Virus record (IMG/VR): IMGVR_UViG_3300046662_000041
Location: 28,924-92,923 of that record
Source of the DNA: a virus
Taxonomy: Duplodnaviria; Caudoviricetes
Direction: 5' to 3' (one strand)
Length of the DNA: 64,000 bases
In this document: in pieces, positions 8,485 through 30,213 of the stretch
Layout: every line of letters starts with the position of its first letter
Numbering within the stretch: position 1 is the stretch's first letter
Notes under the pieces: model-generated
Told to the model about the DNA's origin: nothing
Database searches by the model: none
Seen by the model: the letters and a program-made list of their open reading frames with translations, nothing else
Translations under genes and position numbers: made by a program

Positions 8485-9154
8485 AAGCCAGGAAGATTGA
8501 TTTCCGCTTCAGCCAGTCCGGCATCTCTTTTGGAAGCCCCAGCTTCCTCATTGCAATCTCCACACCTTCAACAAAAGTCTTTCGCTCGTCTGTAGTCAGA
8601 AATGCCCCGCCAAAGTCAAACCAAGCTCCCTTCGGCAACTCTCCGGGCACAAAATTGTATGTCTGGTGAGCAAGGGCACGAATCTCGGTCACACCAATCT
8701 TCTCGTCTAGCGCCGCGGAAATCAGTTCTGCTGTGACTGGCTTGCCTGCTCGCTTCGCGGCAGCGGCAATTTCGTGTGCCTTCGTGATGCCCATCCGATC
8801 AAGCTCATCTTCAGTGAGATTTCCTTGACCGAAGATTTTCAGAAGCCGCTCGGCGACCCCAACATAAGAATAGAGCTGCTTCGAGCTGCGACCAAACTTC
8901 TCCTGAATCGAAATCAGATAACTGTTGAAACTGGTAAACCGGAGCTCGCGCCACACCTGATGGTGCTTGCAAGTAGCCAGAAGGGAGGCCAAGCGCGCGT
9001 AGCCTCGAGAAAGTTTATACTCTCCCTCAAGGACCGCAGCGACCTCCGCGTCAATGGCCGCATGCAGGACGACGGCAGATGCAGAAATCTCAACCGTAAG
9101 TGTATCAGGAGCCAAATGCTTATGCTGCTTTCTTCTCTTCGGCCTTCGCAGCAT
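8435..9154 (-). CDS. Hypothetical helical, probably DNA-binding protein
   Basis: Contiguous ORF in operon; WRELRFTSFNSY and MGITKAHEI pattern. Confidence 0.5.
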   Translation of the reverse strand: MLRRPKRRKQHKHLAPDTLTVEISASAVVLHAAIDAEVAAVLEGEYKLSRGYARLASLLATCKHHQVWRELRFTSFNSYLISIQEKFGRSSKQLYSYVGVAERLLKIFGQGNLTEDELDRMGITKAHEIAAAAKRAGKPVTAELISAALDEKIGVTEIRALAHQTYNFVPGELPKGAWFDFGGAFLTTDERKTFVEGVEIAMRKLGLPKEMPDWLKRKSIFLAFAQEFSGTYRSDVYGS

Positions 9155-10238
9155 CCAACATAGGCATAATCAACTCTTGGTCCCCGGGCACCTTTGGATT
9201 GCTAAACTTCACCAGATGCTTTGCATCGATGAAGTCTATTGAGATGGGCCCGTCAATCTGACCGCTGGCATCCAGTACATATTTCGGATTGATCTTCAAT
9301 TTGATGGCCTCGCCTGTAACCGTGGCACCTTCCGGAGTATCTTCGGATTCTCCTGCAACGCTCGCACTTGAGAGTACGAAACCGCTGCTGTCAGCAGTCA
9401 TGTAGATCGCGGCATCATCACCCTCGCCGGCAACCACTTGTGTGATCGAGATTGATCGCTTGAAGTTATCCGTGGACACCGCAACATTGGTCTTAAAGGT
9501 GACGTTAAGCAGTGCACGCTCATAGGCAGGAAACTTGACAAGGCTCTTCCGGATCAGCAGTTTTTCTTTGCCGGTCGTCAGGAAAAGATTGGTTTCGGAT
9601 TCGGTGAATTCAACATCCACGTCATCACCGGTCATTTCCTTGATGAGTGGAAATGCGTCCTTAACCAACATAATCTTGAAGGTCGGCAATGCATATGGCA
9701 CGTCCGAGATCGCAATGCGGAAGCCATCGGTGGCAACGCCGCGGAGCTGAGTCCCGTTGCTCTCAAACTGGATGACCGGTTGTGCATACCGCCCCTCTTT
9801 CGAAGGGACAGCATGCTCGATCTTCCTAATCAACATTCGTAGCACGCTGAGCTTGATGTGGTACTTCCCTTCCGGTTTCGTCTCAGGAATCGGAAACTCT
9901 GCCACAGGAACCGTCGGCAGCTTCGCTTTGAACTTGCCGGATTTGAGATTCAGCACATTGCCATCTACGTCGATCGAAATGGTTTTGTCACTCGGCAAGA
10001 GGTCCAGAAATTCTTGAGTCCGCTTGGCGGGCAACAGGAAGGATCCAGTGCCCGTCGTAGTGACCACAACCGTCTGGATGATGCTCATCCCTAGATCGCT
10101 TGCTGTGATTGTGGCGATCGACCCATTGACATCAATCTTGGCATAGCTAAGGACTGGAATGGTGACCTTCGCCTGCACGACACCCAAGGCCTTCTTGAGC
10201 ACGCCAGACAATTCCTTCACAGATAATTCAATTTTCAT
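9120..10238 (-). CDS. dnaN: DNA polymerase III beta sliding clamp
   Basis: TIPVLS, ASDL, EFP, VATDGFRIA, FPAYE, NPKYVLD, LIMPM; ~370 aa; SD AGGAG upstream. Confidence 0.9.
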   Translation of the reverse strand: MKIELSVKELSGVLKKALGVVQAKVTIPVLSYAKIDVNGSIATITASDLGMSIIQTVVVTTTGTGSFLLPAKRTQEFLDLLPSDKTISIDVDGNVLNLKSGKFKAKLPTVPVAEFPIPETKPEGKYHIKLSVLRMLIRKIEHAVPSKEGRYAQPVIQFESNGTQLRGVATDGFRIAISDVPYALPTFKIMLVKDAFPLIKEMTGDDVDVEFTESETNLFLTTGKEKLLIRKSLVKFPAYERALLNVTFKTNVAVSTDNFKRSISITQVVAGEGDDAAIYMTADSSGFVLSSASVAGESEDTPEGATVTGEAIKLKINPKYVLDASGQIDGPISIDFIDAKHLVKFSNPKVPGDQELIMPMLDAAKAEEKKAA

Positions 10239-10297
10239 CTTTCTTCTCCTTGAGGATTCCGGACTATAGACTGAATCTGGGCCCAAAGTCAAGCTCT

Positions 10298-12301
10298 TTA
10301 ACCAAAATCTTCTGGCTCGCCTATGTCGTGATGCCGCTCTTCGTGCGACCCAGCTTCCTGCTCAGGCCGGTTGGTCTGCTCAACAAATAAGCTATTCTCT
10401 TCTTGTAGAAGCAGCCGGACCTGTGGTTTGCCAGGACCTTTGAAACGAGTCTTCTTTGCAAACAAGCCCGTCTCAAGCTCGAGGATATCGTCCGGATCCT
10501 GACCATCACGCTGTGGCCGCCGATTCCTGTGCAGAAGGTAGATAGCTGCTGGAATGTCTCGAATCTCGCGGCTGCCTCGAAGGACGCCGTGCTCATTCTT
10601 TTTCAGGTTATCGATCCCCTCGGCTTCGGCGTTGGATTGGCAGATCAGCACGAAGATCGTACCGTACTTGTTTCCGAGAGCCTCGAGCCTCTTGATCATG
10701 GAGCCTTCGGCTTGAACCTGATTCATCTTGCTACCATCTGCAAAGATCAATCTGTGAAAAGTGTCGATTGCAAACCGTGTGGCGCCAAGGGTCCGGATCG
10801 TATTCTCGAGGAAGTCCAAAATCTCCTGCTCTGACTGGCCTATCACGTTGTGCCCGACATAGAAGCGGAAATCAACACCGTTCTGCTTGGCATCAGCTTC
10901 AAGAATATCAGCCGCCTCAACGAAGTACTTCCGATCCATTCTGCCTGTGCGGCGGAGGCCACCCATCTTTGGTCCGACTGTCTGACTTGTAACGAGGGCC
11001 AGGTACTCGTCGTCACGGATTTCTGGTGAGAGATCAACGACAACCTCACCGCGGATCGCTTCGTTGGTTAGGATCTGCGTCTTAAACATCGACTTGCCCG
11101 TGCCAGAATAGGTCGAATAGATGATCACAACGCCGCCGCGGGGTGTGTACGTCATCCGATCGACATTTTGCAGTGTCGGCGGAAAGTGCAGCCGGACAGG
11201 ATCTGCGCCCATATCGGTCCCTTCGGTTGCACGTAATCTCTCATTCAATGGGACGAAGCCTTCGGGAGGCGCTTCCTTAGCTTTTTTCGACAATGCAGCA
11301 ACTTCAAACTGAAACTTGCCTAGATCACCACCGCAAGCATTCATAAAGAAGTCGTTTGCGTCTTTCGTACCTTCGGGCCATACAAGCCAATGTGTGTTAC
11401 CATCGAGCTCTTTGAGGAGCTTTCGCATATATTCATTCCCAACGCCGCCGTCATTATCTCCTGCCAGGAATATACGCTCCGCAAGTTTAAGCTTAATTCG
11501 AGATTGAGTGGTGATATCAACTCCCGCACTTGGGCAACTGACAGCCCTGAATCCGGCCTGTTCCAGGATGCAAGCATCGAACTCACCTTCAGTGACGTAC
11601 ACAGGCTCGAGAGGGTTGATAGTATCCACATTGAACAGAGCTCTGGAGTCCATGTTGTTGACCTGGCTGAAAACTTTATCCACGATTGAGCGAAACTTGA
11701 TTGCAATGATGCGGTCATCGTCAATTCGTGGGATAGCAATCCATCCTTTCGAACGGACTGCATCACAACCGTCCTTAATCCTGTAAATATGGGTTTGGAC
11801 GTAACCGAGCTTCCGATTTCGGATCTCATCGTCTTGAATGCCTCGCACTTTTCTGAGCCAGTCAAGTGCTGCTTGATTGGCCCATAATGATTTGATTGCT
11901 CTGCTTTCCCATTGCTCAAGTGTGTAGACTGTCTTGGGTTTTTTCGACTCGATCGCACTGAAGTTTTCCTGGACCTGATGGGCACCTTCAATCCACTTCG
12001 TATTCTCTGAGAAGTCACCGTCAGTGCCATCGACAATCTGCTTCAACTTTTGGATTGCCAGAGCCGAGTCACAATGATCAAACAGCTCTATGAATGTGAT
12101 GACGTCTCCACCTTTGCCACAGCCGAAGCACTTCCACAACCAGGTACCTTGCTTTGTATCGAGATGGAAGCTTGGCGTCTTATCCTCGTGAAAAGGGCAC
12201 CGTGCAATGAAGCCTGCACCTTCCTGTTTCAAAGGCCAGCGGCCACCAATGATAGCTGGCACATTTGCACGCTTCTTTATTGCGTCAAGATCCTTGGGCA
12301 T
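10298..12301 (-). CDS. Primase-helicase fusion (CHC2 zinc finger + TOPRIM + SF4-type helicase)
   Basis: CPFHEDKTPSF..WKCFGCGKGGD; TEGEFD; GDND; KDAND; SGTGKS; LRGSREI. Confidence 0.9.
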   Translation of the reverse strand: MPKDLDAIKKRANVPAIIGGRWPLKQEGAGFIARCPFHEDKTPSFHLDTKQGTWLWKCFGCGKGGDVITFIELFDHCDSALAIQKLKQIVDGTDGDFSENTKWIEGAHQVQENFSAIESKKPKTVYTLEQWESRAIKSLWANQAALDWLRKVRGIQDDEIRNRKLGYVQTHIYRIKDGCDAVRSKGWIAIPRIDDDRIIAIKFRSIVDKVFSQVNNMDSRALFNVDTINPLEPVYVTEGEFDACILEQAGFRAVSCPSAGVDITTQSRIKLKLAERIFLAGDNDGGVGNEYMRKLLKELDGNTHWLVWPEGTKDANDFFMNACGGDLGKFQFEVAALSKKAKEAPPEGFVPLNERLRATEGTDMGADPVRLHFPPTLQNVDRMTYTPRGGVVIIYSTYSGTGKSMFKTQILTNEAIRGEVVVDLSPEIRDDEYLALVTSQTVGPKMGGLRRTGRMDRKYFVEAADILEADAKQNGVDFRFYVGHNVIGQSEQEILDFLENTIRTLGATRFAIDTFHRLIFADGSKMNQVQAEGSMIKRLEALGNKYGTIFVLICQSNAEAEGIDNLKKNEHGVLRGSREIRDIPAAIYLLHRNRRPQRDGQDPDDILELETGLFAKKTRFKGPGKPQVRLLLQEENSLFVEQTNRPEQEAGSHEERHHDIGEPEDFG

Positions 12302-13307
12302 TTGTTTCCTCAGGGAAGGACGTGGTTAAGAAATCTTCGCCGCTGGGCTCGACGTCGCTTATGCTGACCGTGCCATCTTCGCGCTTGACGGATGGATGCT
12401 GCTTGTAATATGCGTCGAGCGCTGTTGCATTAGTTGCGTCGATGATTTCAGTGGTCAGCTTCTGGCGAGCAGTGTTGAGTGGAATTACCTTGCCCATGTA
12501 TTCTTCTGCCACTTTGACAAATTCAGGGAGTGGCCACGGCGTATCGATAAATTGACCGCAGTCTTGAATCCAAAGCTCGAAAGCAGGTACCATCAGGTCA
12601 GCAGAGTGATTGTCGCAAAGTCGCTCCCACTCCTCGGGATATTTGCTTGGATAGCGGCAGACGGCGGCAGGGCCCTTAACTTTGATCCATGCTCTTTCAA
12701 AATGCTTGTGAATTGCCTTCGCACTCGTGCCAGGATACTGATGTCGCTTGAAGAATCCTGGCTGACCTGATTTTAGATTGCTGGCTGTGTCAATTGGTTG
12801 ATGTTGTACTTCGTCGAGCACGCTACCGACAGAAGAAACCGCAGTCCTAATCCCTCCCTTATCCTTATCCAAATCCAAACCAATACCCTGTGCGAAGTTT
12901 TCGCTAGTTTGGGGCTCGTTACTAGCTAGTCCATCAGCTTCTGGAAATAAGAAACGCTTTCCTCTTGCAAACTTATACCACTCGCCGCGAGGAGGAAGGC
13001 ACTCATCACCGTTCGTCCAGTAACCCCATCGCTTACCTTCCTTATCAGTTCGTGTTAACAAAAGTCCACAGCGGGTAAACTCAGCAAGCATTGCCGCAAC
13101 TCTTTCGACCGTCCATCCTCCCCGTCCGTTGATTTGTCGTGCTGGGGCATAACATGCCGCCCAAACTTTCTGAGGGTCACACTCAAACGTGCCATCACAG
13201 AGTGCCAGCGCGTGAATCCAAGCATACTCTCCCCTAAAGGCATCAGGCTCGACCTTACGGAGCTTGTCTGACGTCCAGGCTTTATCACTAAAGAGACGCT
13301 TTGGCAT
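12285..13307 (-). CDS. Putative replication initiator / replisome organiser
   Basis: N-terminal wHTH-like MPKRL..WTSDKL..L.L.DGTFE; position next to the primase. Confidence 0.5.
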   Translation of the reverse strand: MPKRLFSDKAWTSDKLRKVEPDAFRGEYAWIHALALCDGTFECDPQKVWAACYAPARQINGRGGWTVERVAAMLAEFTRCGLLLTRTDKEGKRWGYWTNGDECLPPRGEWYKFARGKRFLFPEADGLASNEPQTSENFAQGIGLDLDKDKGGIRTAVSSVGSVLDEVQHQPIDTASNLKSGQPGFFKRHQYPGTSAKAIHKHFERAWIKVKGPAAVCRYPSKYPEEWERLCDNHSADLMVPAFELWIQDCGQFIDTPWPLPEFVKVAEEYMGKVIPLNTARQKLTTEIIDATNATALDAYYKQHPSVKREDGTVSISDVEPSGEDFLTTSFPEETNAQGS

Positions 13308-21033: not shown

Positions 21034-21484
21034 TCGGTGCAACGATTAGCGGTTCCTAGGAGCAATCCTTTTGATACTGGGAAAGCAACTCCATCTCGCC
21101 AGGATAGGGAACACGCCGTCAGAATGCCTGGATGCATCGATTAACGCACGTAAATGTCCTATGGTCGCTCAACCGGACACGGGTGCAAATCCCGTCGGCT
21201 CCACCAACTTGCTTCCGCGTCAGATGAGCCGAAACTACTCTACGGAGAGACGGTCGCTGGCGGGAGCAAGACTGCGGGGCCGAACTAGATTCGACGGGTG
21301 AGATCGATGGTAGGAAGCTCGTGCCGACAATGGCCACCGTCGCTAATCGTGGACCAAACAATAAAAGCGAAGCGAATGCTCGCGAAGGTGATCGCGTTTG
21401 TCGAGGCTCCGGTGCGCTCATACGCCCCGGTCGCAGTGGCAGCGTAAATTGCCGGTGGAGGCTGCCCGAAAAGGTGGCCTCCGC
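21034..21484 (+). ncRNA. ssrA: Circularly permuted (two-piece) tmRNA: acceptor piece ~21034-21206, intervening segment 21207-21275, coding piece from 21276
   Basis: T-arm and acceptor 3' end ACGGGTGCAAATCCCGT-CGGCTCC-ACCA (ends 21206) precedes the 5' end GGGGCCG-AACTAGATTCGAC (21276). 7-bp acceptor stem with G3.U70, P2 pairing, PK1 (CGAC/GTCG + CCAC/GTGG), and tag ORF 21367-21447 ending VAVAA*. Confidence 0.93.
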
Positions 21485-21490
21485 ACTTCT
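21455..21490 (+). terminator. Hairpin ending the tmRNA coding piece (intrinsic terminator or 3' stem)
   Basis: GTGGAGGCTGCC-CGAAAA-GGTGGCCTCCGC followed by ACTTCTT. Confidence 0.65.
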
Positions 21491-21511
21491 TGTCAAGTAA
21501 ATACACAAAAC

Positions 21512-21540
21512 TTGACATAATGCTTGTGATTCTGGATGAT
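21512..21540 (+). promoter_or_regulatory. Promoter for the nitrilase-polA operon (leaderless start)
   Basis: TTGACA-N17-GATGAT with ATG 7 nt downstream; the -35 is part of inverted repeat TGTCAAG-N13-CTTGACA. Confidence 0.55.
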
Positions 21541-21547
21541 CCCTCCT

Positions 21548-22618
21548 ATGCCTACCGTGAGAGTTGCTAGCTCCATCCCTCGACAGTTTTGGATGCAATC
21601 AGAGAAATTGGCTTGGCTCGACACCGCTATTGCAGCTAACTCTTGCGATCTGTTTCTAACATCGCAAGAATTCGTTGGCGGCGGTTCGTGTCAGGATTTG
21701 TGTCGCCGCAAAGGCTGGCAAACTGATGACGTGCCTGTGACTCCTGCCTGGCTTAGTGAGCATGTCGGCGGCCTCTGCCAGAAGCATAATGTCCACATCG
21801 GTTTCGGTGCCACCGTCAGCCGTGAAGGCATCAACACAGAAGATTATCTTTACTTCGATCCGACAGGAGAGCTGCTAGGATATCATTCAAAGATAGCACT
21901 TCCTGTCCAGGATAGCATCATCAATAATGGTGCATCACAGGTTACTCCGGAGACAAATTTCGAGCGGGCCACCAGCATTGTCGAGATTCCAGCACTCGGC
22001 CTGCGCGTCGGCACCGTCTTCTGCTGGCAGATTTTCTTTTCCGATTTCTTCACAGAGGTCAAGCGCAACCGTCCCAACCTGCTAGTCAACTGCATTAAAT
22101 TTGCTCCACGAGCATGGTATCAGAAGGATGTGGACCCTGCAGGCCGAAATATACGGAGTGGTTTCTCGCAGGAGACAGGTAGTAGCAAGCCAGAAGACGA
22201 TGCCCTCGGCTGGATTGACAAGCTCCGTTTCGAATCTCGGTACAAGGAATTCCCTATAGCAGTCACGTGCAATACGTGGTCAGCAGGGGCAAAATACCTG
22301 GCTCTGGTTGGCTGGGTGGATGAGGTCACGAAACACACGCACCTCGAGAATCTTCCGTCGGTGGCAGAAGCAGAACGCGTGATTGTGACGGAGTTCGATC
22401 CCAGCCTTTATGCCGAGCTTGAGCACTTGAGCTTGGGTGTATATGCGCGTTTCAAAGGCGATTGGGCAGCTTTAATGCAAGGCACAATGCGGCGAAAGGC
22501 TATCAGGATTGAGCAGCGTTGCCGGAGTGGTAAGACTGCCGAGCAGCTCGCCAAGTACCGTGCCAAACCGAAGCCAGCTAAATCTGTAGAGACACTTCAG
22601 CCAGGGATTTTTGACTAA
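21548..22618 (+). CDS. Carbon-nitrogen hydrolase (nitrilase-superfamily) protein
   Basis: Putative Glu-Lys-Cys triad: DLFLTSQEF, GYHSKIAL, RVGTVFCWQ; C-terminal QPGIFD. Confidence 0.7.
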   Translation: MPTVRVASSIPRQFWMQSEKLAWLDTAIAANSCDLFLTSQEFVGGGSCQDLCRRKGWQTDDVPVTPAWLSEHVGGLCQKHNVHIGFGATVSREGINTEDYLYFDPTGELLGYHSKIALPVQDSIINNGASQVTPETNFERATSIVEIPALGLRVGTVFCWQIFFSDFFTEVKRNRPNLLVNCIKFAPRAWYQKDVDPAGRNIRSGFSQETGSSKPEDDALGWIDKLRFESRYKEFPIAVTCNTWSAGAKYLALVGWVDEVTKHTHLENLPSVAEAERVIVTEFDPSLYAELEHLSLGVYARFKGDWAALMQGTMRRKAIRIEQRCRSGKTAEQLAKYRAKPKPAKSVETLQPGIFD

Positions 22619-24705
22619 TGCCACAAGAAGCTTTCTTCTCCGCTAGTGAGATGGCCGAGATGTCTAGCGGTTTGTGTCCTCCTGCCCCTAAGGATTATCA
22701 CCTCCCGACGTCATTCCCGTGTCTCATCAAAGCCGCACGCATCTGCTACGATATAGAGACCTTCGATCCAAACATTGGCAAGAAGGGCGCCGGCACCTAC
22801 CGTAAGGATGGCAAGATCATCGGCGCAGCGATCGCGGCCTGGGACCATAACGACGTCTTGATGCATGCCGAGTATTATCCTGTCGCCCATCGCAGCGGAC
22901 CAAATCTTGATGAGGATAATGTCTTCAGTTACTTTGCAAACCAGATGGCTTTCTTCGAAGGCGAGCTGATCGGTACTAACTTACTGTATGATATGGACTG
23001 GAGCAGCTCCAAGAAAATCAAGGCTCCTTTTGCAAAATTTCGTGATGTCCAGTTTGCTGAAGCACTCATCGACGAGCTCGCCTTCAATTACAAGCTAGAG
23101 ACGCTCAGCCAGAAGTATCTCGGTCACGGTAAAGTCAAAGATCATTTCGCTCTCTTGTACGGCCCTGACTACATTCAGCGCTTCCACGAAGTGCATCCTG
23201 GGCATGCCCGATTGTATGGACTCGGTGATGTCTTCCAGCCTAAAGAAATTCTTGACCTACAGTACCGTGAACTTGGCCGGCTCGGCATGCTAGATCTCTT
23301 CAATCTCGAGTGTCGGCTGATGCCACTGCTCTTGTATATGAAAGAGCAAGGCGTCCGTATCGATATGAAGCGGGCGATGGAGATCAAGAACATCCTTGAG
23401 GAGAAACGTGCTGCGTGTTTGAAGGCTGCTTCCAAACTGGCTGGCGTTGAGCTCACGGTCGAAAATATGGGCAGTCCGAAGCTGCTAGCCTACATCTTTG
23501 AGAAACAGGGTATCATTATTGCCAAAGCCAAGAAGGGTGGCATCAGCATCACAGGCAAATGGCTGCATCATCTCTGTATGTGCAAGAAGAAGGATGCCGA
23601 AGGAAACCTCATCGATAACCAGGATTGCGGCCACTTAGGCAGGCTGCTTGAATCTGCGAATAAGTATGACAAAGCAAAAGAAGTCTTTGTTGATAGTTAC
23701 ATGTTTGACTTCGCTGTAGATGGGCGGATCCATGCTGACTTCCACCCGTTGCGGAAGGCGGATGATGATGATGACTCTGGCACAGAGTCCGGCCGCTTCA
23801 GTTGCTCACATCCTAATCTTCAAAACATCCCGACAAGAGATGAAGAAATCGGACCGATGTGCCGCTCTTTGTTTATCCCCGAGGAAGGGGCAGAATGGTG
23901 GGCAATAGATTACTCACAGATTGAGTATCGCTTTCTGGCACATAGAGCACTTTGCTTGAAGCCACTTAAGGGTGACGGTGATCACGCGCGCCGCAGAAAA
24001 GCCGCAATCGAAGCAGCACAGTTAGTCAAAAAGATGTATGAAGAAGATCCAAATACAGACTTCCACGAAGCCGTCAAACAGTTGACTGGTCTCAAGCGCA
24101 AGGATGCGAAAAACTTCAACTTCAGGCTAGTGTATGGCGGCGGCAAGGTCGGCGCTGCACAAGTCCTAGGCATGCTTGACAAGGAAGGAAAGCCAACCAA
24201 GGAATTTGAGGTTATTTGGGAGACGTATCATGGCAAGGCGCCTTTCATCAAGGAGCTGCTTGATGAGAGCATGGCACAGGCGCAAAACGACGGCGAGGTC
24301 CGCACGATTCTTAATCGCCGCACTCAGTTCGAATTTTATGAACCGGCTGGCAAGCGTGTACAAAAAGGTGGCTCACTCCCTTTGGCTCAAGCGATCGAAA
24401 AATGGGGCTTCGATCTGCAGCGTGCCAATACCCATAAGGCACTTAACCGCGAACTGCAAGGATCCGCGGCAGATCTTATTAAGATGGCGCTTGCTTTGGC
24501 TTGGGAGCAAGGTGTCTTTACATCGACAAAAGACTTCACGATTGCTCTGCAGGTCCATGATGAAGGTGATGGAAGCAAATTTCCAACCAAGCGCGGCGAA
24601 GAATGCTATCAAGAACTGAAGCACACAATGGAGAATGCATTGGTCTTGAACGTGCCAATAAAAGCTGAAGGTGGAATAGGAAAGAATTGGGCAGAAGCGA
24701 AGTAA
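22618..24705 (+). CDS. polA: Family A DNA polymerase (3'-5' exonuclease + polymerase)
   Basis: DIET, NLLYD, GTESGRFS..PNLQNIP, DYSQIEYR, AKNFNFRLVYG, QGSAADL, QVHDE. Confidence 0.95.
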   Translation: MPQEAFFSASEMAEMSSGLCPPAPKDYHLPTSFPCLIKAARICYDIETFDPNIGKKGAGTYRKDGKIIGAAIAAWDHNDVLMHAEYYPVAHRSGPNLDEDNVFSYFANQMAFFEGELIGTNLLYDMDWSSSKKIKAPFAKFRDVQFAEALIDELAFNYKLETLSQKYLGHGKVKDHFALLYGPDYIQRFHEVHPGHARLYGLGDVFQPKEILDLQYRELGRLGMLDLFNLECRLMPLLLYMKEQGVRIDMKRAMEIKNILEEKRAACLKAASKLAGVELTVENMGSPKLLAYIFEKQGIIIAKAKKGGISITGKWLHHLCMCKKKDAEGNLIDNQDCGHLGRLLESANKYDKAKEVFVDSYMFDFAVDGRIHADFHPLRKADDDDDSGTESGRFSCSHPNLQNIPTRDEEIGPMCRSLFIPEEGAEWWAIDYSQIEYRFLAHRALCLKPLKGDGDHARRRKAAIEAAQLVKKMYEEDPNTDFHEAVKQLTGLKRKDAKNFNFRLVYGGGKVGAAQVLGMLDKEGKPTKEFEVIWETYHGKAPFIKELLDESMAQAQNDGEVRTILNRRTQFEFYEPAGKRVQKGGSLPLAQAIEKWGFDLQRANTHKALNRELQGSAADLIKMALALAWEQGVFTSTKDFTIALQVHDEGDGSKFPTKRGEECYQELKHTMENALVLNVPIKAEGGIGKNWAEAK

Positions 24706-24707
24706 AT

Positions 24708-25271
24708 TTAATGTACTTCGAAGTAATCTCTATACAATCGATACCGTCTTAGAAATTCAGCCACAGCCAACCCATCCGGATGGATGCACTCCATCGGCGG
24801 GTACTCCCGTTGATACTTCAAGCACAGCTCCTCTGCTTCAGGGTCACGCCGATAAATCTGTTGTAGTGCTTGCGTGCCCACAGAATATACCTCTCCTCGA
24901 AGCGCCCGTCGATCTGCAATTTTAATCTCACGGTGCATTTCTCCAGTCTCTTTCGGGAGCCCAAGATGTTTGATAATCGCAATACGGATCTTCTTCTCCA
25001 TCGCCTCGATTTCGGGTGTCTTGACAGGCTTCGGAAGATCGCCCGTGATGCATTCAGAGGAGTCGTGCAAAAGCCCATACAACTTCAGTCGCTTTGGTAG
25101 CATATCGCAAACGACAAACGTGTGGAGAACGACCGGCCACCAGCTCATCCCGGCACCTGCATATCGCCCCTCCCGAGACAAACTGATAGCGATGTCGTGA
25201 ATTCCCGGAGCCACGTCAGGGAAAGCGATTCTGCCACTATACGTGTATAGACTCTGCCTGCGCTTTAGCAA
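24708..25271 (-). CDS. HD-domain 5'-deoxynucleotidase/dNTP phosphohydrolase (YfbR-like); probable TTG start at 25271
   Basis: TYSGR, DIAISLSREGRYAG, VVLH, LLHDSSECITGDLPKPVK, KIAD; SD GAGGT before the TTG. Confidence 0.85.
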   Translation of the reverse strand: MLKRRQSLYTYSGRIAFPDVAPGIHDIAISLSREGRYAGAGMSWWPVVLHTFVVCDMLPKRLKLYGLLHDSSECITGDLPKPVKTPEIEAMEKKIRIAIIKHLGLPKETGEMHREIKIADRRALRGEVYSVGTQALQQIYRRDPEAEELCLKYQREYPPMECIHPDGLAVAEFLRRYRLYRDYFEVH

Positions 25272-25827
25272 GTTCAACCTCGAAAAGGAATTCTGCAACG
25301 GAGCCGACACGAGGAAGATCAACATGATGGTTATAGGGCTGGTCAAGTAGATATGCCTTGTGGCCTAGAATGCCCTGGCAATCCTGTACCGTGCTCGGTA
25401 GATCGTCAAGGCTAAACTGGATTCCTTCGTCAATAATGATCTGACGCTTTTGGCTACTGTGATCAACGACAATGACTTTGGATAAATCGGGACCGAGACC
25501 TTGCTCTATAAGCCAAAGCTGACTTTGAATCACGGTACTTGCGCCGGTAGCAGGCGATCGCGCTGTGATATAATAAACATCATCGTCATTGAATCGATCT
25601 AGGAAGTTGCGAAGCTCTCCAGCACCTTCGTGTGCCGGCATATGGATCCATGCGTTTTCAAAGCTAAGCATATAGCTGAATGCTTCGTTCCATTGCTCCT
25701 GTGTAATTCCATCCAGGAACGACCACGAAGTGTGCTCAAGCTTCTTGTGAAAGAGTTTCTCAATCATTGCAGAAGCCGGCGTCGACATGTCAACAAGGAC
25801 ACCATCAAGATCGAAACTGATTTTCAC
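25237..25827 (-). CDS. HAD 5'(3')-deoxyribonucleotidase (NT5C-like)
   Basis: FDLDGVLVD, YITAR, LDD, PYN. Confidence 0.85.
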   Translation of the reverse strand: MKISFDLDGVLVDMSTPASAMIEKLFHKKLEHTSWSFLDGITQEQWNEAFSYMLSFENAWIHMPAHEGAGELRNFLDRFNDDDVYYITARSPATGASTVIQSQLWLIEQGLGPDLSKVIVVDHSSQKRQIIIDEGIQFSLDDLPSTVQDCQGILGHKAYLLDQPYNHHVDLPRVGSVAEFLFEVELAKAQAESIHV

Positions 25828-26270
25828 AGGATAGCTGCCACTCTTGCAGCCATCTTATAGAGATCTGGGAGCATTGAAGCCACTATGCTTTTGCTATATG
25901 ACACATTGCCTTGATCCCATTCGTATGCACATTGCTCTGCATACATGATTGCGTCAAGAATCTCTTGAGCAAAATCCACAACAGCATCACGTCCATTGCA
26001 CGCGCGAAGATAGGTGCCATATTTCGCTCTGCCCATTTCGGCACGTTTGATCAAAGCATTCTTCACAAGATGAATCGCTTTGGCAAAATCATCTTCAATC
26101 TTATTCCGATCATCAAAGGCTCTATTTCCAGCCATAATCATCCGGTCGCAGCGTGCAGTAGCCAAGTGGAGAATGATTTGACCTTCACCAACCGGAGCTG
26201 GCTCGTGTGTTGCAAGCTTATCCGGAATGTGTTGAGGATCTTGCCCGCCGCGTGCTGCATATTCTGTCAT
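25824..26270 (-). CDS. Putative all-alpha NTP pyrophosphatase (MazG-like) phage protein
   Basis: RAEMGRAKYGTYL..NGRDAVVDFAQEILDAIMY acidic helix motif. Confidence 0.5.
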   Translation of the reverse strand: MTEYAARGGQDPQHIPDKLATHEPAPVGEGQIILHLATARCDRMIMAGNRAFDDRNKIEDDFAKAIHLVKNALIKRAEMGRAKYGTYLRACNGRDAVVDFAQEILDAIMYAEQCAYEWDQGNVSYSKSIVASMLPDLYKMAARVAAIL

Positions 26271-26836
26271 GGCATCTCCGTATCAAGAATATAGTTGAAA
26301 ATTGCTTCGGCAGTGTACTCAAGCAGAAGCCCCTTGCCCGTTATGTTCGTGAGATAGTAATCGGCTGGCCAGTGATCTAAAGCCGTCTCAGTGATATGAT
26401 TTGGGTCACGCGTCACGCTGATGAATGGTGAACCGTCAACGTTCAGGCGATTAAGCCGGATGATGTGGCCACCTTTTTCACGGAGTGCTGTGCCTTCTTG
26501 AGGGAAACGGATATTGGGTGTGATAATGACATCAAACTCCGAATGCTCGTCAATGTACTTCACGACCTTATTCGACCAATAATTCTTGTCGACGGTATCC
26601 CGCATCCTGGACCCCTCGAAGACCAGGACACGGACCTGCTCATCGGTGCATTGCTCTCGTGTGATATCAGGCTGGATCATTCCAAGAGCTTGGCAATGAG
26701 CAAGGATCATCTTGCTAATCTCGACGATCTCACATTTGAGACCCTTGGCTTCGGCGGCTTCCTTCATAATACGTGAAGTGGCTGTCTTGCCTGCTTCTGC
26801 CTTGCCAGAAAGACCGATTACGATTGGGTGGTGCAT
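26267..26836 (-). CDS. Deoxynucleoside monophosphate kinase-like P-loop kinase
   Basis: IGLSGKAEAGKT, R...KNYW, NIRFPQE, HITETALD. Confidence 0.8.
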   Translation of the reverse strand: MHHPIVIGLSGKAEAGKTATSRIMKEAAEAKGLKCEIVEISKMILAHCQALGMIQPDITREQCTDEQVRVLVFEGSRMRDTVDKNYWSNKVVKYIDEHSEFDVIITPNIRFPQEGTALREKGGHIIRLNRLNVDGSPFISVTRDPNHITETALDHWPADYYLTNITGKGLLLEYTAEAIFNYILDTEMP

Positions 26837-28609: not shown

Positions 28610-30213
28610 TTCCTCCCGTGCTGACGTTCGTATTCACCAGCAAACTCACCGTAAGGATTCCAATCCCGTGCTTCCTTCTGGACATGCGTGCAGTTGATGA
28701 AGTACTGGAAGGTCTGCAGATGCTTCTCCGTCACACCGAAGAGTTGCTGGCCGGCTGGGATCGGCTCTAAACCCCAATTGACGCCCAATTCATTCTGACC
28801 GTTGAGTGATCCGTTTGAGATCAGCCGCGGAAAGGTCACAGGCACGTGAATATCGCCGATACATGCTCGTGCAAATGTTGCACCTTGCAGTCCATTTTTG
28901 TGGCGAAACTCTGGGCTATCAAATAAAGATCGTACTGTCTTGAGAAACGCATCCATGCTCTTAACTTGCATGTCGGGGCTATTCTTATATCCGACCTGCA
29001 TGCCGTGTGCGAAGAGATGACGGTGGCCGCGAATGTCTTCGAAAATATATGGCGACATCCCCTCACGAATCGTGACGCGCGGCGTATTCTTAAATCGCTC
29101 AATCAGCATCTGGTAGATCAGCCAATCAAAAGTACGTTGCGATTGATATTTCATCGGCATATTGAAGCATGTCGATTCCCTCATGTGATTTCCACAAGTG
29201 AAGAGCAGTACAACCTCTTCCACAACGCGGACACCAGTGATCGGGTCAGGCACCGTCAACTGCAGCAGATCGTCAAGGCCAAACTTCAACATCTTAAAAG
29301 TGAAGTCGACCTGCGGCCCAATGAAAAGTGCATTGCTAACCGGGGCATCGTGAAGGTCACCATTGCCCATATCTCCGCCGTACCAGATATAAAGCTTCTT
29401 GATTGGATACATTGCACGGTGCATCGTGAGGATCTGCTTTGCCTTCTCGATCACATACCCAAAGCGATTGCCAGCAACAGGCAGATCATATTCCGGAAAT
29501 CCGCTGGTATCTCCTGGTCTGATCACATCACCAAAATGTGTGTCACTGATCAGGAATACAGCGTCCTCTGTGTGCCCTTCGTTAATGGGCAGCTTCCATT
29601 CAGGCATCTTGGCATGGCTGACCTGCGTCGTCGTCAGATTGACTGCACCAAGCTGCTGCGTGATATCGCGGATTTGCTGGAGGGCTTCCTCGTAAGAAGC
29701 CGTGCTGATCAGAAGTTTTTCACGATAGCGCTTCTCAGCCCCAAGGGACATCGAAAGCCGTTTGTTGAGCTTAAGAAGCTTTGCGTTTTCGCCAGCCAAG
29801 TCATCCTTCTGCTCCTCTGTAAATATACGAGTCAATATGGCGGAAACAGCATAAAGCTCTTTATGATCGGCAATGTACTGCTTATTGGTCTTAGAAGTTT
29901 TATCATCCTGTTTCGTTATCGTGGCGGTCTGTTCAGCAATGAAGCCCATATCCCATTTGCGAGCAGTGAATTCCTTAACCCGCCAGACCGTCGTGTCAAT
30001 CTCGAATGCCTCGATAAGTTGCTCTAGGGTATGGATCCGCGTCTTCGGAATGGAAATTGTACGCTTACTGCCGGTCGTGGTATCTTTCTGCGGTTCTGAG
30101 GTCGGAGGAAGTATACCGCGACCTTGTCCTTGGCATCCGCAAGTTTTGTTTCGAGCGTCATACAGCTTTTCTTTATTACAGGCAGGACACACACGCTTAA
30201 GCATTGTTGGCAT
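28606..30213 (-). CDS. Calcineurin-like metallophosphoesterase with N-terminal Zn finger and coiled coil
   Basis: SDTHFG, GDMGNG, GNH, AHG, GDIH motifs. Confidence 0.8.
   Translation of the reverse strand: MPTMLKRVCPACNKEKLYDARNKTCGCQGQGRGILPPTSEPQKDTTTGSKRTISIPKTRIHTLEQLIEAFEIDTTVWRVKEFTARKWDMGFIAEQTATITKQDDKTSKTNKQYIADHKELYAVSAILTRIFTEEQKDDLAGENAKLLKLNKRLSMSLGAEKRYREKLLISTASYEEALQQIRDITQQLGAVNLTTTQVSHAKMPEWKLPINEGHTEDAVFLISDTHFGDVIRPGDTSGFPEYDLPVAGNRFGYVIEKAKQILTMHRAMYPIKKLYIWYGGDMGNGDLHDAPVSNALFIGPQVDFTFKMLKFGLDDLLQLTVPDPITGVRVVEEVVLLFTCGNHMRESTCFNMPMKYQSQRTFDWLIYQMLIERFKNTPRVTIREGMSPYIFEDIRGHRHLFAHGMQVGYKNSPDMQVKSMDAFLKTVRSLFDSPEFRHKNGLQGATFARACIGDIHVPVTFPRLISNGSLNGQNELGVNWGLEPIPAGQQLFGVTEKHLQTFQYFINCTHVQKEARDWNPYGEFAGEYERQHGRK

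Follow-up and report, generated by a model that had tools for sequence, protein, structure and literature searches.

A nitrilase-fold protein encoded beside a phage family-A DNA polymerase gene is a candidate hydrolase of DpdA-type 7-deazaguanine DNA modification

Why does a phage carry a nitrilase-superfamily (CN-hydrolase) gene whose stop codon runs into the start of polA, and on what does the encoded enzyme act? The gene, here called NIT, lies in a 64,000-nucleotide stretch of a Caudoviricetes genome (IMG/VR record IMGVR_UViG_3300046662_000041, positions 28,924 to 92,923), which we refer to as the window. The original prediction, made from the letters alone, was that an amide- or nitrile-processing enzyme is held at the replisome by clamp-binding-like peptides and modifies, de-blocks or repairs bases on nascent DNA as an undescribed system. 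From the analysis below, we favor with moderate confidence that NIT is the dedicated hydrolase of a phage DpdA-type 7-deazaguanine DNA-modification system. The features are collected in Table 1.

Table 1. Positions of NIT, polA and associated features in the window, and of the pathway genes elsewhere in the same genome (G000).
Feature	Position	Strand	Basis and remarks
Permuted tmRNA gene abutting the NIT start	21114..21538	+	ARAGORN; context, outside the system
Promoter-like site TTGACA-17-GATGAT, just 5' of NIT	21512..21540	+	Consensus match only
NIT alternative upstream ATG	21536	+	ORF 21536/21548-22618 gives 360/356 aa, ending ...TLQPGIFD
NIT, nitrilase-superfamily (CN-hydrolase) gene	21548..22618	+	Pfam, alignment, AF2, Foldseek, VIA
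Catalytic codon span of NIT	21668..22024	+	Glu45 21668-70, Lys119 21890-92, Glu139 21950-52, Cys163 22022-24, then invariant Trp164; invariant or near-invariant columns of alignment A1, codons checked
NIT C-terminal peptide QPGIFD (...ETLQPGIFD)	22598..22615	+	Preceded by a basic linker of low confidence; candidate motif for binding the sliding clamp (or another hub)
polA, family-A DNA polymerase	22618..24705	+	PF00476, 1.8e-52; start overlaps NIT stop
PolA N-terminal peptide QEAFF (MPQEAFFSASEM; protein start MPQEAFF)	22624..22638	+	Family consensus Q-G-G-F-F-S-x-x-E-h; GLFWED in distant relatives
Phage DnaN (beta sliding clamp)	9120..10238	-	Real start 18 codons inside the longest ORF
QPGFF in ORF 12285-13307	12750..12764	-	Residues 182-186; junction of variable linker and conserved C-terminal domain
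DpdA, own genome	G000 C1:14468-15970		phrog_887 at 4.3e-32
FolE, QueD, QueE, own genome	G000:C1:16764-18826		~11-14 kb upstream of the window start

NIT probably starts at the ATG at 21548, as originally called, because its homologues begin M-x-x-V-R-V-A, and the promoter-like site ahead of it may drive the NIT-polA unit. The assignment to the CN-hydrolases with a Glu-Lys-Cys triad held. Against Pfam CN_hydrolase (PF00795), NIT is borderline, with 23.3 bits just above the gathering threshold of 23.2; the homologue P0006 reaches 40.9 bits, and the majority of the homologues are pre-annotated with PF00795. The AF2 model (pLDDT 90.2) is a four-layer alpha-beta-beta-alpha sandwich, and a Foldseek search, which had been suggested as a check of the fold, returned the nitrilase fold (E~1e-14, probability 1.00), as did VIA with Z values of 23-25 over ~250-270 residues against nitrilases, amidases and carbamoylases. 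Glu45, Lys119, Cys163 and Trp164 are invariant across 26 homologues down to 33% identity (alignment A1), and the second glutamate, Glu139, is conserved in at least 90% of the same sequences. In the predicted model, the superfamily fold is unambiguous and NIT is an active-looking nitrilase-fold enzyme. The best VIA match is the nitrilase 8uxu (Z 25.2), with amidases, a ureidopropionase and carbamoylases within 1 Z unit, and because these values are tied the structure gives no branch of the superfamily for NIT. Nitrilases carry a CWE motif; the Cys-Trp is common to, and invariant in, NIT, and the third residue is Gln instead of Glu (CWQ).

We found ~47 metagenomic homologues of NIT, the closest at 54-74% identity on Logan/JGI contigs. 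P0006 and P0038 are long forms whose N-terminal extensions contain no Pfam domain. No match was returned by tblastn searches of 50,697 cultured phage records with NIT (P0001) and its distant homologue P0049, by megablast of the NIT region, or by the alignment A1 profile against PDB sequences; PHROGs and NCBIfam gave nothing for NIT, and the ESM Atlas gave generic CN-hydrolase clusters only. A scan of genome contigs yielded one frameshifted NIT remnant, without informative neighbors, in an Acidobacteriota MAG, and this only cellular genome with a NIT remnant contains QueC.

The neighbors of NIT in related loci point to its pathway. A DpdA-like gene (phrog_887, E 1e-34) directly adjoins NIT in L002, L003, L004, L007, L008 and L013, an operon dpdA-NIT-queD-queE-folE is present in L002, L003, L008, L012 and L013, and ParB_N-like genes, comparable to DpdB, flank the dpdA/NIT pair in L002, L003, L005, L007 and L013. 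The order parB-like/dpdA/NIT/queD/queE/folE is frequent in independent metagenomic loci. The window's own genome encodes DpdA, FolE, QueD and QueE, and the ParB_N model found no match in it. Its single QueD keeps the CxxxHGH motif and is therefore a QueD, not DpdL. No match to DUF328/DpdC (PF03883) was found in the NIT phages, own genome included, and NIT itself matches CN_hydrolase only. An apparent DpdA-NIT fusion in L002 was rejected as a frame artefact of that GC-rich locus. Outside its closest relatives, NIT adjoins dpdA and queD/queE/folE, and the system is therefore a variant of known 7-deazaguanine DNA modification. The idea of a DNA-modification enzyme survives in this form, as NIT is very probably part of a phage base-modification system, but the system is not of an undescribed kind, nor a new repair or de-blocking pathway.

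In the mechanism that we propose, phage FolE, QueD and QueE would provide the 7-deazaguanine precursors, host QueC would supply the nitrile, and DpdA would swap the 7-deazaguanine base into DNA. Cys163, together with Glu45, Lys119 and Glu139, would attack the 7-cyano or 7-carboxamide carbon of preQ0 or ADG, the thioimidate or thioester typical of nitrilases would form on NIT, and water would release the amide (ADG) or the acid (CDG). The probable outcome, by analogy, would be dADG or dCDG formed from the preQ0/ADG nitrile or amide, and the most likely substrate of NIT would be a base already in DNA. On this proposed reaction, NIT would be a non-homologous analogue of bacterial DpdC, the DUF328 protein (PMC5699537) that converts preQ0-DNA to ADG-DNA (PMC10164549). 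A phage enzyme making dADG from preQ0 has been postulated and is still to be identified (PMC6884629), and our literature search for a CN-hydrolase linked with 7-deazaguanines found no such paper. Two other reactions were discarded, namely synthesis of ADG from CDG and ammonia, on the chemical reasoning that the equilibrium favors amide hydrolysis by ~14 kJ/mol and an ATP site is absent from the fold, and decarboxylation of CDG, likewise on chemical grounds.

QueC is where the proposed mechanism meets its main difficulty. QueC was found in 0 of 8 NIT clusters versus ~34 of 38 clusters from the same polA clade that lack NIT (p~6e-7), counts that are not phylogenetically independent, with the NIT loci confined to two clades. 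Related phages of the polA clade with deazaguanine clusters have QueC and lack NIT. PF06508 had no match in G000, G001 and G002 (records 83, 32 and 66% complete), and tblastn for queC had no match in any NIT locus. Without QueC, the phage-made end product is CDG. The model of NIT acting on preQ0 or ADG needs host QueC, because a phage without its own makes only CDG, which is no nitrilase substrate, and placing NIT downstream of preQ0 leaves the constant absence of queC in NIT phages unexplained.

Among the alternatives, the one that survives best takes this absence as its starting point. NIT could run the QueC reaction in reverse without ATP on free bases, turning host-made preQ0 (and ADG) into CDG in the nucleotide pool, which would leave CDG as the only base for DpdA to insert and give DNA with dCDG or a base derived from CDG. 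True nitrilases yield an acid and ammonia, in keeping with this scheme. The strict mutual exclusion of NIT and QueC, the placement of NIT inside queD/queE/folE operons and CDG as the phage-made end product agree with it, and it fits the constant absence of queC at least as well as the on-DNA model does. In addition, dCDG was detected in a virus without a known route to it (PMC10516641). However, preQ0 or preQ1 is the established substrate of DpdA and TGT enzymes, insertion of CDG would be hypothetical, and the DNA- and clamp-directed features of the NIT C-terminus, together with the ParB-like/DpdA/NIT triad, point to action at DNA. We consider the free-base scheme unlikely.

The C-terminal features were examined together with the start of PolA. 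The translations confirm that NIT ends in QPGIFD and PolA begins MPQEAFF, and the other two elements of the original prediction, a phage-encoded DnaN and a QPGFF within ORF 12285-13307, are present as well, the latter kept as QPGF[FY] in ~12 of 18 homologues. The terminal motifs are conserved and are more than chance: a hydrophobic-Phe pair occurs in the last 9 residues of 25/36 NIT homologues (2.7 expected from shuffles) and in the first 12 residues of 94/121 PolA homologues (18.7 expected), and only 3 of the 143 ORFs of the genome have Qxx[ILMFVW]F at a terminus. In the close NIT clade, the tails are Qxx[IF]F or SxFDDF (25/36), many of them ending acidic in ...FDDF; in the distant clade they are Lys/Arg-rich. 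The last 60 residues of NIT are basic, with a median pI of 10.0 vs 5.8 for the core, and the tail has a pLDDT of ~52. In G000, the NIT tail LQPGIFD matches LQPPIFE at the end of a small ORF next to dpdA, and in L007 the NIT tail SKIPVLKL matches VKIPKLTL at the end of a dpdA neighbor; when the G000 small ORF was compared by BLASTP with the L007 ParB-like protein, the two were similar in the tail alone. The N-terminal half of the small ORF ending in LQPPIFE looks doubtful as coding sequence. From their sequences, the NIT C-terminal and PolA N-terminal peptides are good candidates for clamp-binding motifs.

A clamp that such peptides could bind is available. The window's phage encodes DnaN and a clamp loader alongside its family-A polymerase, and in 49-56 of 81 related loci a divergent beta-clamp gene, gene Y (its assignment as a clamp supported by hhalign at 98.7%), lies directly upstream of polA. 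The PolA N-terminal motif and the upstream clamp gene go together (table 50/2/6/19, Fisher 6e-11). The suggestion that a family-A polymerase may work with a beta clamp is thus backed by comparative genomics, but it is not new, since Kazlauskas and Venclovas had put forward the pairing of PolA with polIII-beta in phages in 2011 (PMC3201878). For NIT, recruitment to DNA and to the sliding clamp behind the fork could come from the basic helices of its C-terminus and its closing Qxx[IF]F peptide. A further step, which we offer only tentatively and hold to be rather improbable as a whole, is that the small or ParB-like partner of DpdA and NIT both ride the beta clamp behind the fork, where in queC-less phages NIT would hydrolyze the nitrile or amide on DNA, with dADG, dCDG or some new derivative as the product.

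The tie between NIT and PolA themselves is mostly synteny. The TAA of NIT overlaps the ATG of polA (TAATG) as predicted, and in 7 close relatives NIT and PolA homologues are on same-sized contigs, including those of 4.9 and 5.2 kb, a linkage inferred solely from the matching contig sizes. Outside these closest relatives NIT never adjoins polA: in every related locus retrieved it has no polA nearby and sits with dpdA, in the company of queD/queE/folE. The 80 polA-clade loci in IMG/VR, recovered with an alignment query after a scan with a single PolA protein returned nothing, are without NIT, and their slot upstream of polA mostly holds the clamp gene. In Dinoroseobacter phage R5C, the nearest cultured relative by PolA, queE takes this slot coupled to polA, and the genes for QueC, QueD, FolE and DpdA lie scattered among those of replication. 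The NIT-polA adjacency may reflect a habit of this lineage of interleaving deazaguanine genes with replication genes. These data bear directly on the original reading, in which a repair or de-blocking enzyme is tethered to the replisome, is functionally coupled to PolA and has no connection with deazaguanines. The stop/start overlap, the same-sized contigs and the conserved terminal peptides on both proteins would suit it, but with NIT beside dpdA rather than polA elsewhere, and with clamp gene or queE upstream of polA in the NIT-less loci, we regard it as very unlikely.

Equally hard to sustain is an auxiliary metabolic role, in which NIT would be an amidase or glutaminase that, for example, feeds ammonia to a host QueC-type amidotransferase or scavenges nitrogen, and its terminal peptide would bind another partner in the manner of the SSB-type or polymerase-binding tails of T7 gp2.5 and gp4. 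A precedent exists in NAD synthetase, where ammonia passes from a CN-hydrolase domain to a PP-loop ATPase of the superfamily of QueC, our QueC search cross-matched NAD_synthase and Asn_synthase, and the acidic ...FDDF ends would resemble such tails. Nevertheless, no partner synthetase is encoded, the phage SSB has the classical DEDIPF end, unlike NIT, and NIT tails are also seen in L004, a small temperate phage locus that has no polA. Least probable of all is a counter-defense amidase that strips the 7-deazaguanine-carbonyl (NDG) amide-bonded by QueC-like Cap9/QatC to immune proteins (type IV CBASS, QatABCD): deazaguanylation, which is essential for defense, is an amide bond that QueC-family enzymes form from CDG (10.1101/2025.04.06.647259; PMC13639016), CN-hydrolases are amidases for non-peptide amides and a CDG-flooding phage might need such an activity, but the tight dpdA operon linkage and the DNA-directed tails would go unexplained and no Cap9/QatC context was seen.

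The assignment of NIT to 7-deazaguanine modification matters because these modifications shield phages from restriction and CRISPR, and the phage route to dADG or dCDG and the products of queC-less clusters are open steps of the pathway (PMC6884629, PMC10516641). Such a step now has a concrete candidate that can be tested, a nitrilase-fold protein that systematically occupies the place of QueC beside dpdA; if NIT does belong to the pathway, it adds a new enzyme family to it, and a nitrilase that acts on a nucleobase nitrile would be of interest for biocatalysis. The conservation of the end-peptides suggests a physical coupling of base modification to the sliding clamp, and the use of a dedicated, highly divergent beta clamp by a large clade of family-A polymerases in phages. 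Should the clamp-riding, on-DNA scheme be true, NIT would be the first member of the nitrilase superfamily to act on DNA and the first base-hypermodification enzyme tethered to a clamp.

How does NIT compare with known systems? ToyJKL, the toyocamycin nitrile hydratase, converts a 7-cyano-7-deazapurine to the 7-carboxamide, much as proposed for NIT, but it is metal-dependent, has an unrelated fold and acts on a free nucleoside in antibiotic biosynthesis. Like NIT, DpdC (DUF328) of bacterial Dpd restriction-modification has a TGT-like DpdA and a ParB-like protein as neighbors in a cluster for 7-deazaguanine DNA modification, and its reaction, in which the 7-cyano group of DNA-borne preQ0 is hydrolyzed to the amide, is the one proposed for NIT by analogy. 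Their folds are unrelated (DUF328 vs CN-hydrolase), and NIT, unlike DpdC, is phage-encoded, lies in queC-less clusters and has a clamp-motif-like or basic tail. QueC (7-cyano-7-deazaguanine synthase, PF06508) shares with NIT the operon with queD, queE, folE and dpdA and the same C7 substituent (acid, amide, nitrile), but it is an ATP-dependent PP-loop builder of the nitrile, whereas NIT would be an ATP-independent Cys hydrolase working in the opposite direction only. DpdL, a QueD paralogue and proposed CDG decarboxylase, is likewise an extra enzyme of phages with DpdA, FolE, QueD and QueE but without QueC (PMC10516641); it differs from NIT in its T-fold and in its proposed product, 7-deazaguanine. 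Branch-1 nitrilases, cyanide (di)hydratases and other amidases (8uxu, 3wuy, 9odt, 2w1v, 5h8k) have the fold, the Glu-Lys-Cys(-Glu) residues and the C-terminal helical extension in common with NIT, at only 8-16% identity and with CWE in place of CWQ, and they lack its basic C-terminal extension ending in a short linear motif and its phage DNA-modification context. The terminal Q-x-x-h-F peptide after a flexible linker resembles those of clamp-motif clients (QL[SD]LF / QxxLxF); the literature that we searched describes no DNA base-modifying hydrolase as a clamp client, nor an N-terminal motif on phage PolA that co-varies with a clamp gene. The closest parallel for the replication genes is found in the PolA and polIII-beta phages Ma-LMM01 and RSL1, which, like the window's phage, combine DnaN, a clamp loader and a family-A polymerase (PMC3201878).

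The NIT gene directly before polA had been predicted to encode a CN-hydrolase with a Glu-Lys-Cys triad and to end in an overlap with the polA start, and both predictions are borne out. The TAA of NIT and the ATG of polA have one base in common (TAATG). The Pfam match to CN_hydrolase (residues 68-196) is borderline, scoring 23.3 bits where the cut-off is 23.2, and searches of PHROGs and NCBIfam with NIT gave no match. AlphaFold modelled NIT with confidence (pLDDT 90.2, pTM 0.88), and the entire core of the model is matched by structures of the nitrilase superfamily (Foldseek E~1e-14). VIA returned Z scores of 23-25 for nitrilase 8uxu, Nit6803, cyanide dihydratase, amidases, ureidopropionase and carbamoylases, a tie between branches of the superfamily by which structure does not separate nitrilase from amidase. 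Searching 5.8 billion proteins yielded 47 homologues. Each comes from a metagenome or virome, and the majority were already annotated as PF00795. When 26 sequences were aligned, down to 33% identity, Glu45, Lys119, Cys163 and Trp164 were invariant and Glu139 nearly so. The sole cellular match among 185,579 species lies on a 2.2-Mb contig of a Candidatus Acidoferrales MAG (L103); this copy is N-terminally truncated and frameshifted and ends in SSFFDDF, which hints at Acidobacteriota as hosts of this phage group. A permuted (two-piece) tmRNA gene, found by ARAGORN and with a long tag ending in PVAVAA, abuts the NIT start.

Co-occurrence of NIT with polA had been proposed as a check on the original prediction. 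The related NIT loci that we retrieved (2 viral, 12 metagenomic, 1 genomic; queried with 20 to 31 proteins of the phage) carry neither polA nor other replication genes of the window near NIT. Instead, a DpdA-like gene (phrog_887, E 1.2e-34) immediately adjoins it in L004, L007, L013, L008, L002 and L003. In 7-deazaguanine modification, DpdA acts as the DNA-guanine transglycosylase. At 36-40% identity, the distant NIT clade has the gene order dpdA-NIT-queD-queE-folE (L002, L003, L008, L012, L013), and ParB_N-like genes, the family of DpdB, border the dpdA/NIT pair in L002, L003 (two copies), L013, L005 (two copies) and L007. L005, which belongs to a related phage or island from a metagenome, additionally encodes a complete restriction-modification enzyme of MmeI type, separated by 1.8 kb from NIT and the two ParB_N-like genes.

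The 64-kb window forms the end of a 92.9-kb IMG/VR record, and the first 29 kb of that record hold dpdA, folE, queE and queD. QueC (PF06508) was not found in this record or in two other viral records with NIT, nor by tblastn in any NIT locus, and a search of the NIT phages for DUF328, the family of bacterial DpdC (PMC5699537), found none. At its N-terminus the DpdA ORF repeats a ~50-residue segment, three times in tandem (MRLFIAGS, MELFVAGL, MKLFIAGN); the TGT-like domain continues from the third copy only, the phrog_887 match starting at residue 94.

Coordinates of the features (window positions unless a locus or C1, the contig of the window's own record, is named)
Feature	Position	Strand	Remarks
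NIT ORF	21536/21548-22618	+	360/356 aa; ends in TLQPGIFD
polA	22618-24705	+	family-A polymerase; PF00476 1.8e-52
tmRNA gene	21114-21538	+	
Nucleotidase and kinase genes	24708-26836	-	
DnaN, longest ORF	9120-10292	-	
DpdA	C1:14468-15970	-	about 13-14 kb before window start (locus L016)
Small ORF	C1:15967-16263	-	locus L016; stop overlaps dpdA start; ends in LQPPIFE
FolE	C1:16764-17339		first 29 kb of record
QueE	C1:17355-18149		first 29 kb of record
QueD	C1:18422-18826		first 29 kb of record; CxxxHGH intact
Clamp loader	C1:12604-13758		outside window, first 29 kb of record
Gene Y	L025:8871-9917; L032:8982-9932; L082:8982-9932		also in about 50 other IMG/VR loci
MmeI-type enzyme	L005:5417-8200	-	
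Cellular NIT match	L103:10001-10943		

An alignment-based scan of IMG/VR gave 80 loci of the same PolA clade (≤38% identity). In 37 of them dpdA and folE lie within 8 kb upstream of polA, with queE as well in 30 of the 80, typically in the order queE-queC-queD-folE-dpdA-Y-polA; queC is present in 33-34 of these 37 loci and NIT in none. Gene Y (316-348 aa) overlaps the polA start with its stop; in 49 of 56 loci fewer than 450 nt separate its end from polA. Its product is a highly divergent beta sliding clamp (98.7% probability and E 4e-16 over 312 columns in hhalign with a DnaN alignment) that would escape standard annotation, Pfam giving nothing above threshold. Dinoroseobacter phage R5C, the closest cultured relative by PolA, has queE coupled to polA, and its QueD, QueC, FolE and DpdA are interspersed among primase, helicase and clamp-loader genes. 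Together, these gene orders imply that deazaguanine genes belong to the replication module in this lineage, and that the slot before polA is variable, holding a clamp gene, queE or NIT. Among the closest relatives (54-74% identity) the longest contigs of the NIT and PolA homologues are of the same size in seven cases (including 4,894 and 5,153 bp), so the NIT-polA pair is probably maintained in that sub-lineage.

The phage further encodes DnaN, a primase-helicase, UvrD, SSB and RecA. The best 150 DnaN homologues all align from residue 19 of the longest ORF, placing the true start at ATG 10238 rather than TTG 10292. Just downstream of polA lie genes for an HD/YfbR-like 5'-deoxynucleotidase, an NT5C-type deoxynucleotidase and a dNMP kinase, suggesting that the dNTP pool is actively reshaped besides post-replicative modification.

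The NIT tails fall into three related classes: Q-x-x-[IFW]-F followed by acidic residues (QPGIFD, QQTIFQE, QPSIFPQE, QLDIFS), S-x-[FL]-F-D-[DN]-F, and [IV]-P-x-[LF]-K-L. A hydrophobic-Phe pair occurs within the last nine residues in 25 of 36 full-length close-clade homologues, against 2.7 expected (last 40 residues shuffled, 2,000 shuffles, maximum 9). Qxx[ILMFVW]F at a terminus is found in only 3 of the 143 ORFs of the phage, namely NIT, PolA and the small ORF before dpdA, whose LQPPIFE is nearly identical to the LQPGIFD of NIT. In L007 the tails of NIT (SKIPVLKL) and of the ParB-like gene after dpdA (VKIPKLTL) are similar. These matching tails suggest a common partner of the modification proteins, the small ORF being a doubtful gene over its N-terminal half, which looks non-coding, so that the real gene may be very short. 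The NIT tail is not an SSB-type tip, since the phage SSB has a classical one of its own (DEDIPF). The PolA N-terminus reads M-x-Q-G-G-F-F-S-x-x-E-h in close homologues and GLFS..E or GLFWED in distant ones, with a hydrophobic-Phe pair within the first 12 residues in 94 of 121 homologues (18.7 expected). This motif co-occurs with clamp gene Y (50/2/6/19 in 77 IMG/VR loci; odds ratio 79, Fisher 6e-11), good comparative evidence for a candidate clamp hook. The phage PolA probably works with a clamp, a pairing with polIII-beta that was proposed earlier for the PolA of Ma-LMM01 and RSL1 (PMC3201878), and NIT is probably recruited to the clamp through its candidate tail motif. The QPGFF of ORF 12285-13307 (-), located at a linker/domain boundary, persists as [QED]-P-G-[FY]-[FY] in about 12 of 18 homologues. 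In this family the C-terminal domain is joined to at least three unrelated N-terminal domains, one DUF1376/YdaU-like, and the C-terminus of most members is a conserved acidic peptide, E-P-[GD]-x-x-x-F, a further candidate for a replisome docking tail.

QueC is present in 0 of 8 deazaguanine clusters with NIT versus about 34 of 38 without it (Fisher p~6e-7); the two are mutually exclusive, in counts that are not phylogenetically independent because the NIT loci represent only two clades. The steps of FolE, QueD and QueE end in CDG, the acid form of the 7-deazaguanine base. Only the preQ0 nitrile, the ADG amide and amide conjugates of CDG are attackable by a Cys-Glu-Lys hydrolase in this pathway. 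NIT performing the QueC reaction was therefore rejected, as CDG is no substrate and the fold has no means to activate a carboxylate. On balance, we lean towards NIT being a DNA-modification enzyme of a 7-deazaguanine system, standing in for QueC and DpdC. The gene context favors the DNA-modification role of the original prediction, which was partly right in its interpretation but had missed this system. Host QueC would supply preQ0 (the Acidobacteriota MAG with the NIT remnant does encode QueC), and NIT would hydrolyze the base in DNA to dADG or dCDG, a reading to which we give a slight preference. The strongly basic last 60 residues (median pI 10.0 versus 5.8 for the core), the Lys/Arg-rich C-terminal tails of the distant clade and the short terminal motif after a low-confidence linker in the close clade point to DNA as the site of action. 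It is unlikely, but deserves weight, that NIT returns free preQ0 and ADG to CDG, the DNA then receiving dCDG; this would account better for the exclusivity with queC than on-DNA hydrolysis does, but less well for the DNA-directed features. Very improbably, NIT is a counter-defence amidase taking deazaguanine off proteins, an idea that follows from the recently discovered amide linkage of CDG to proteins by the QueC-like Cap9 and QatC (deazaguanylation; 10.1101/2025.04.06.647259; PMC13639016).

No paper in the literature searched connects phage deazaguanines to a nitrilase or CN-hydrolase. Two questions were explicitly left open by Hutinet et al.: the identity of the phage enzyme that turns preQ0 into dADG (PMC6884629), and the further requirements of clusters lacking queC (PMC10516641). 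In bacteria, DpdC hydrates preQ0 in DNA to ADG (PMC10164549). The reaction that we propose for on-DNA hydrolysis by NIT is DpdC-like although the two proteins are non-homologous, and the parB-like/dpdA/NIT triad of the phage loci mirrors the bacterial DpdB/DpdA/DpdC.
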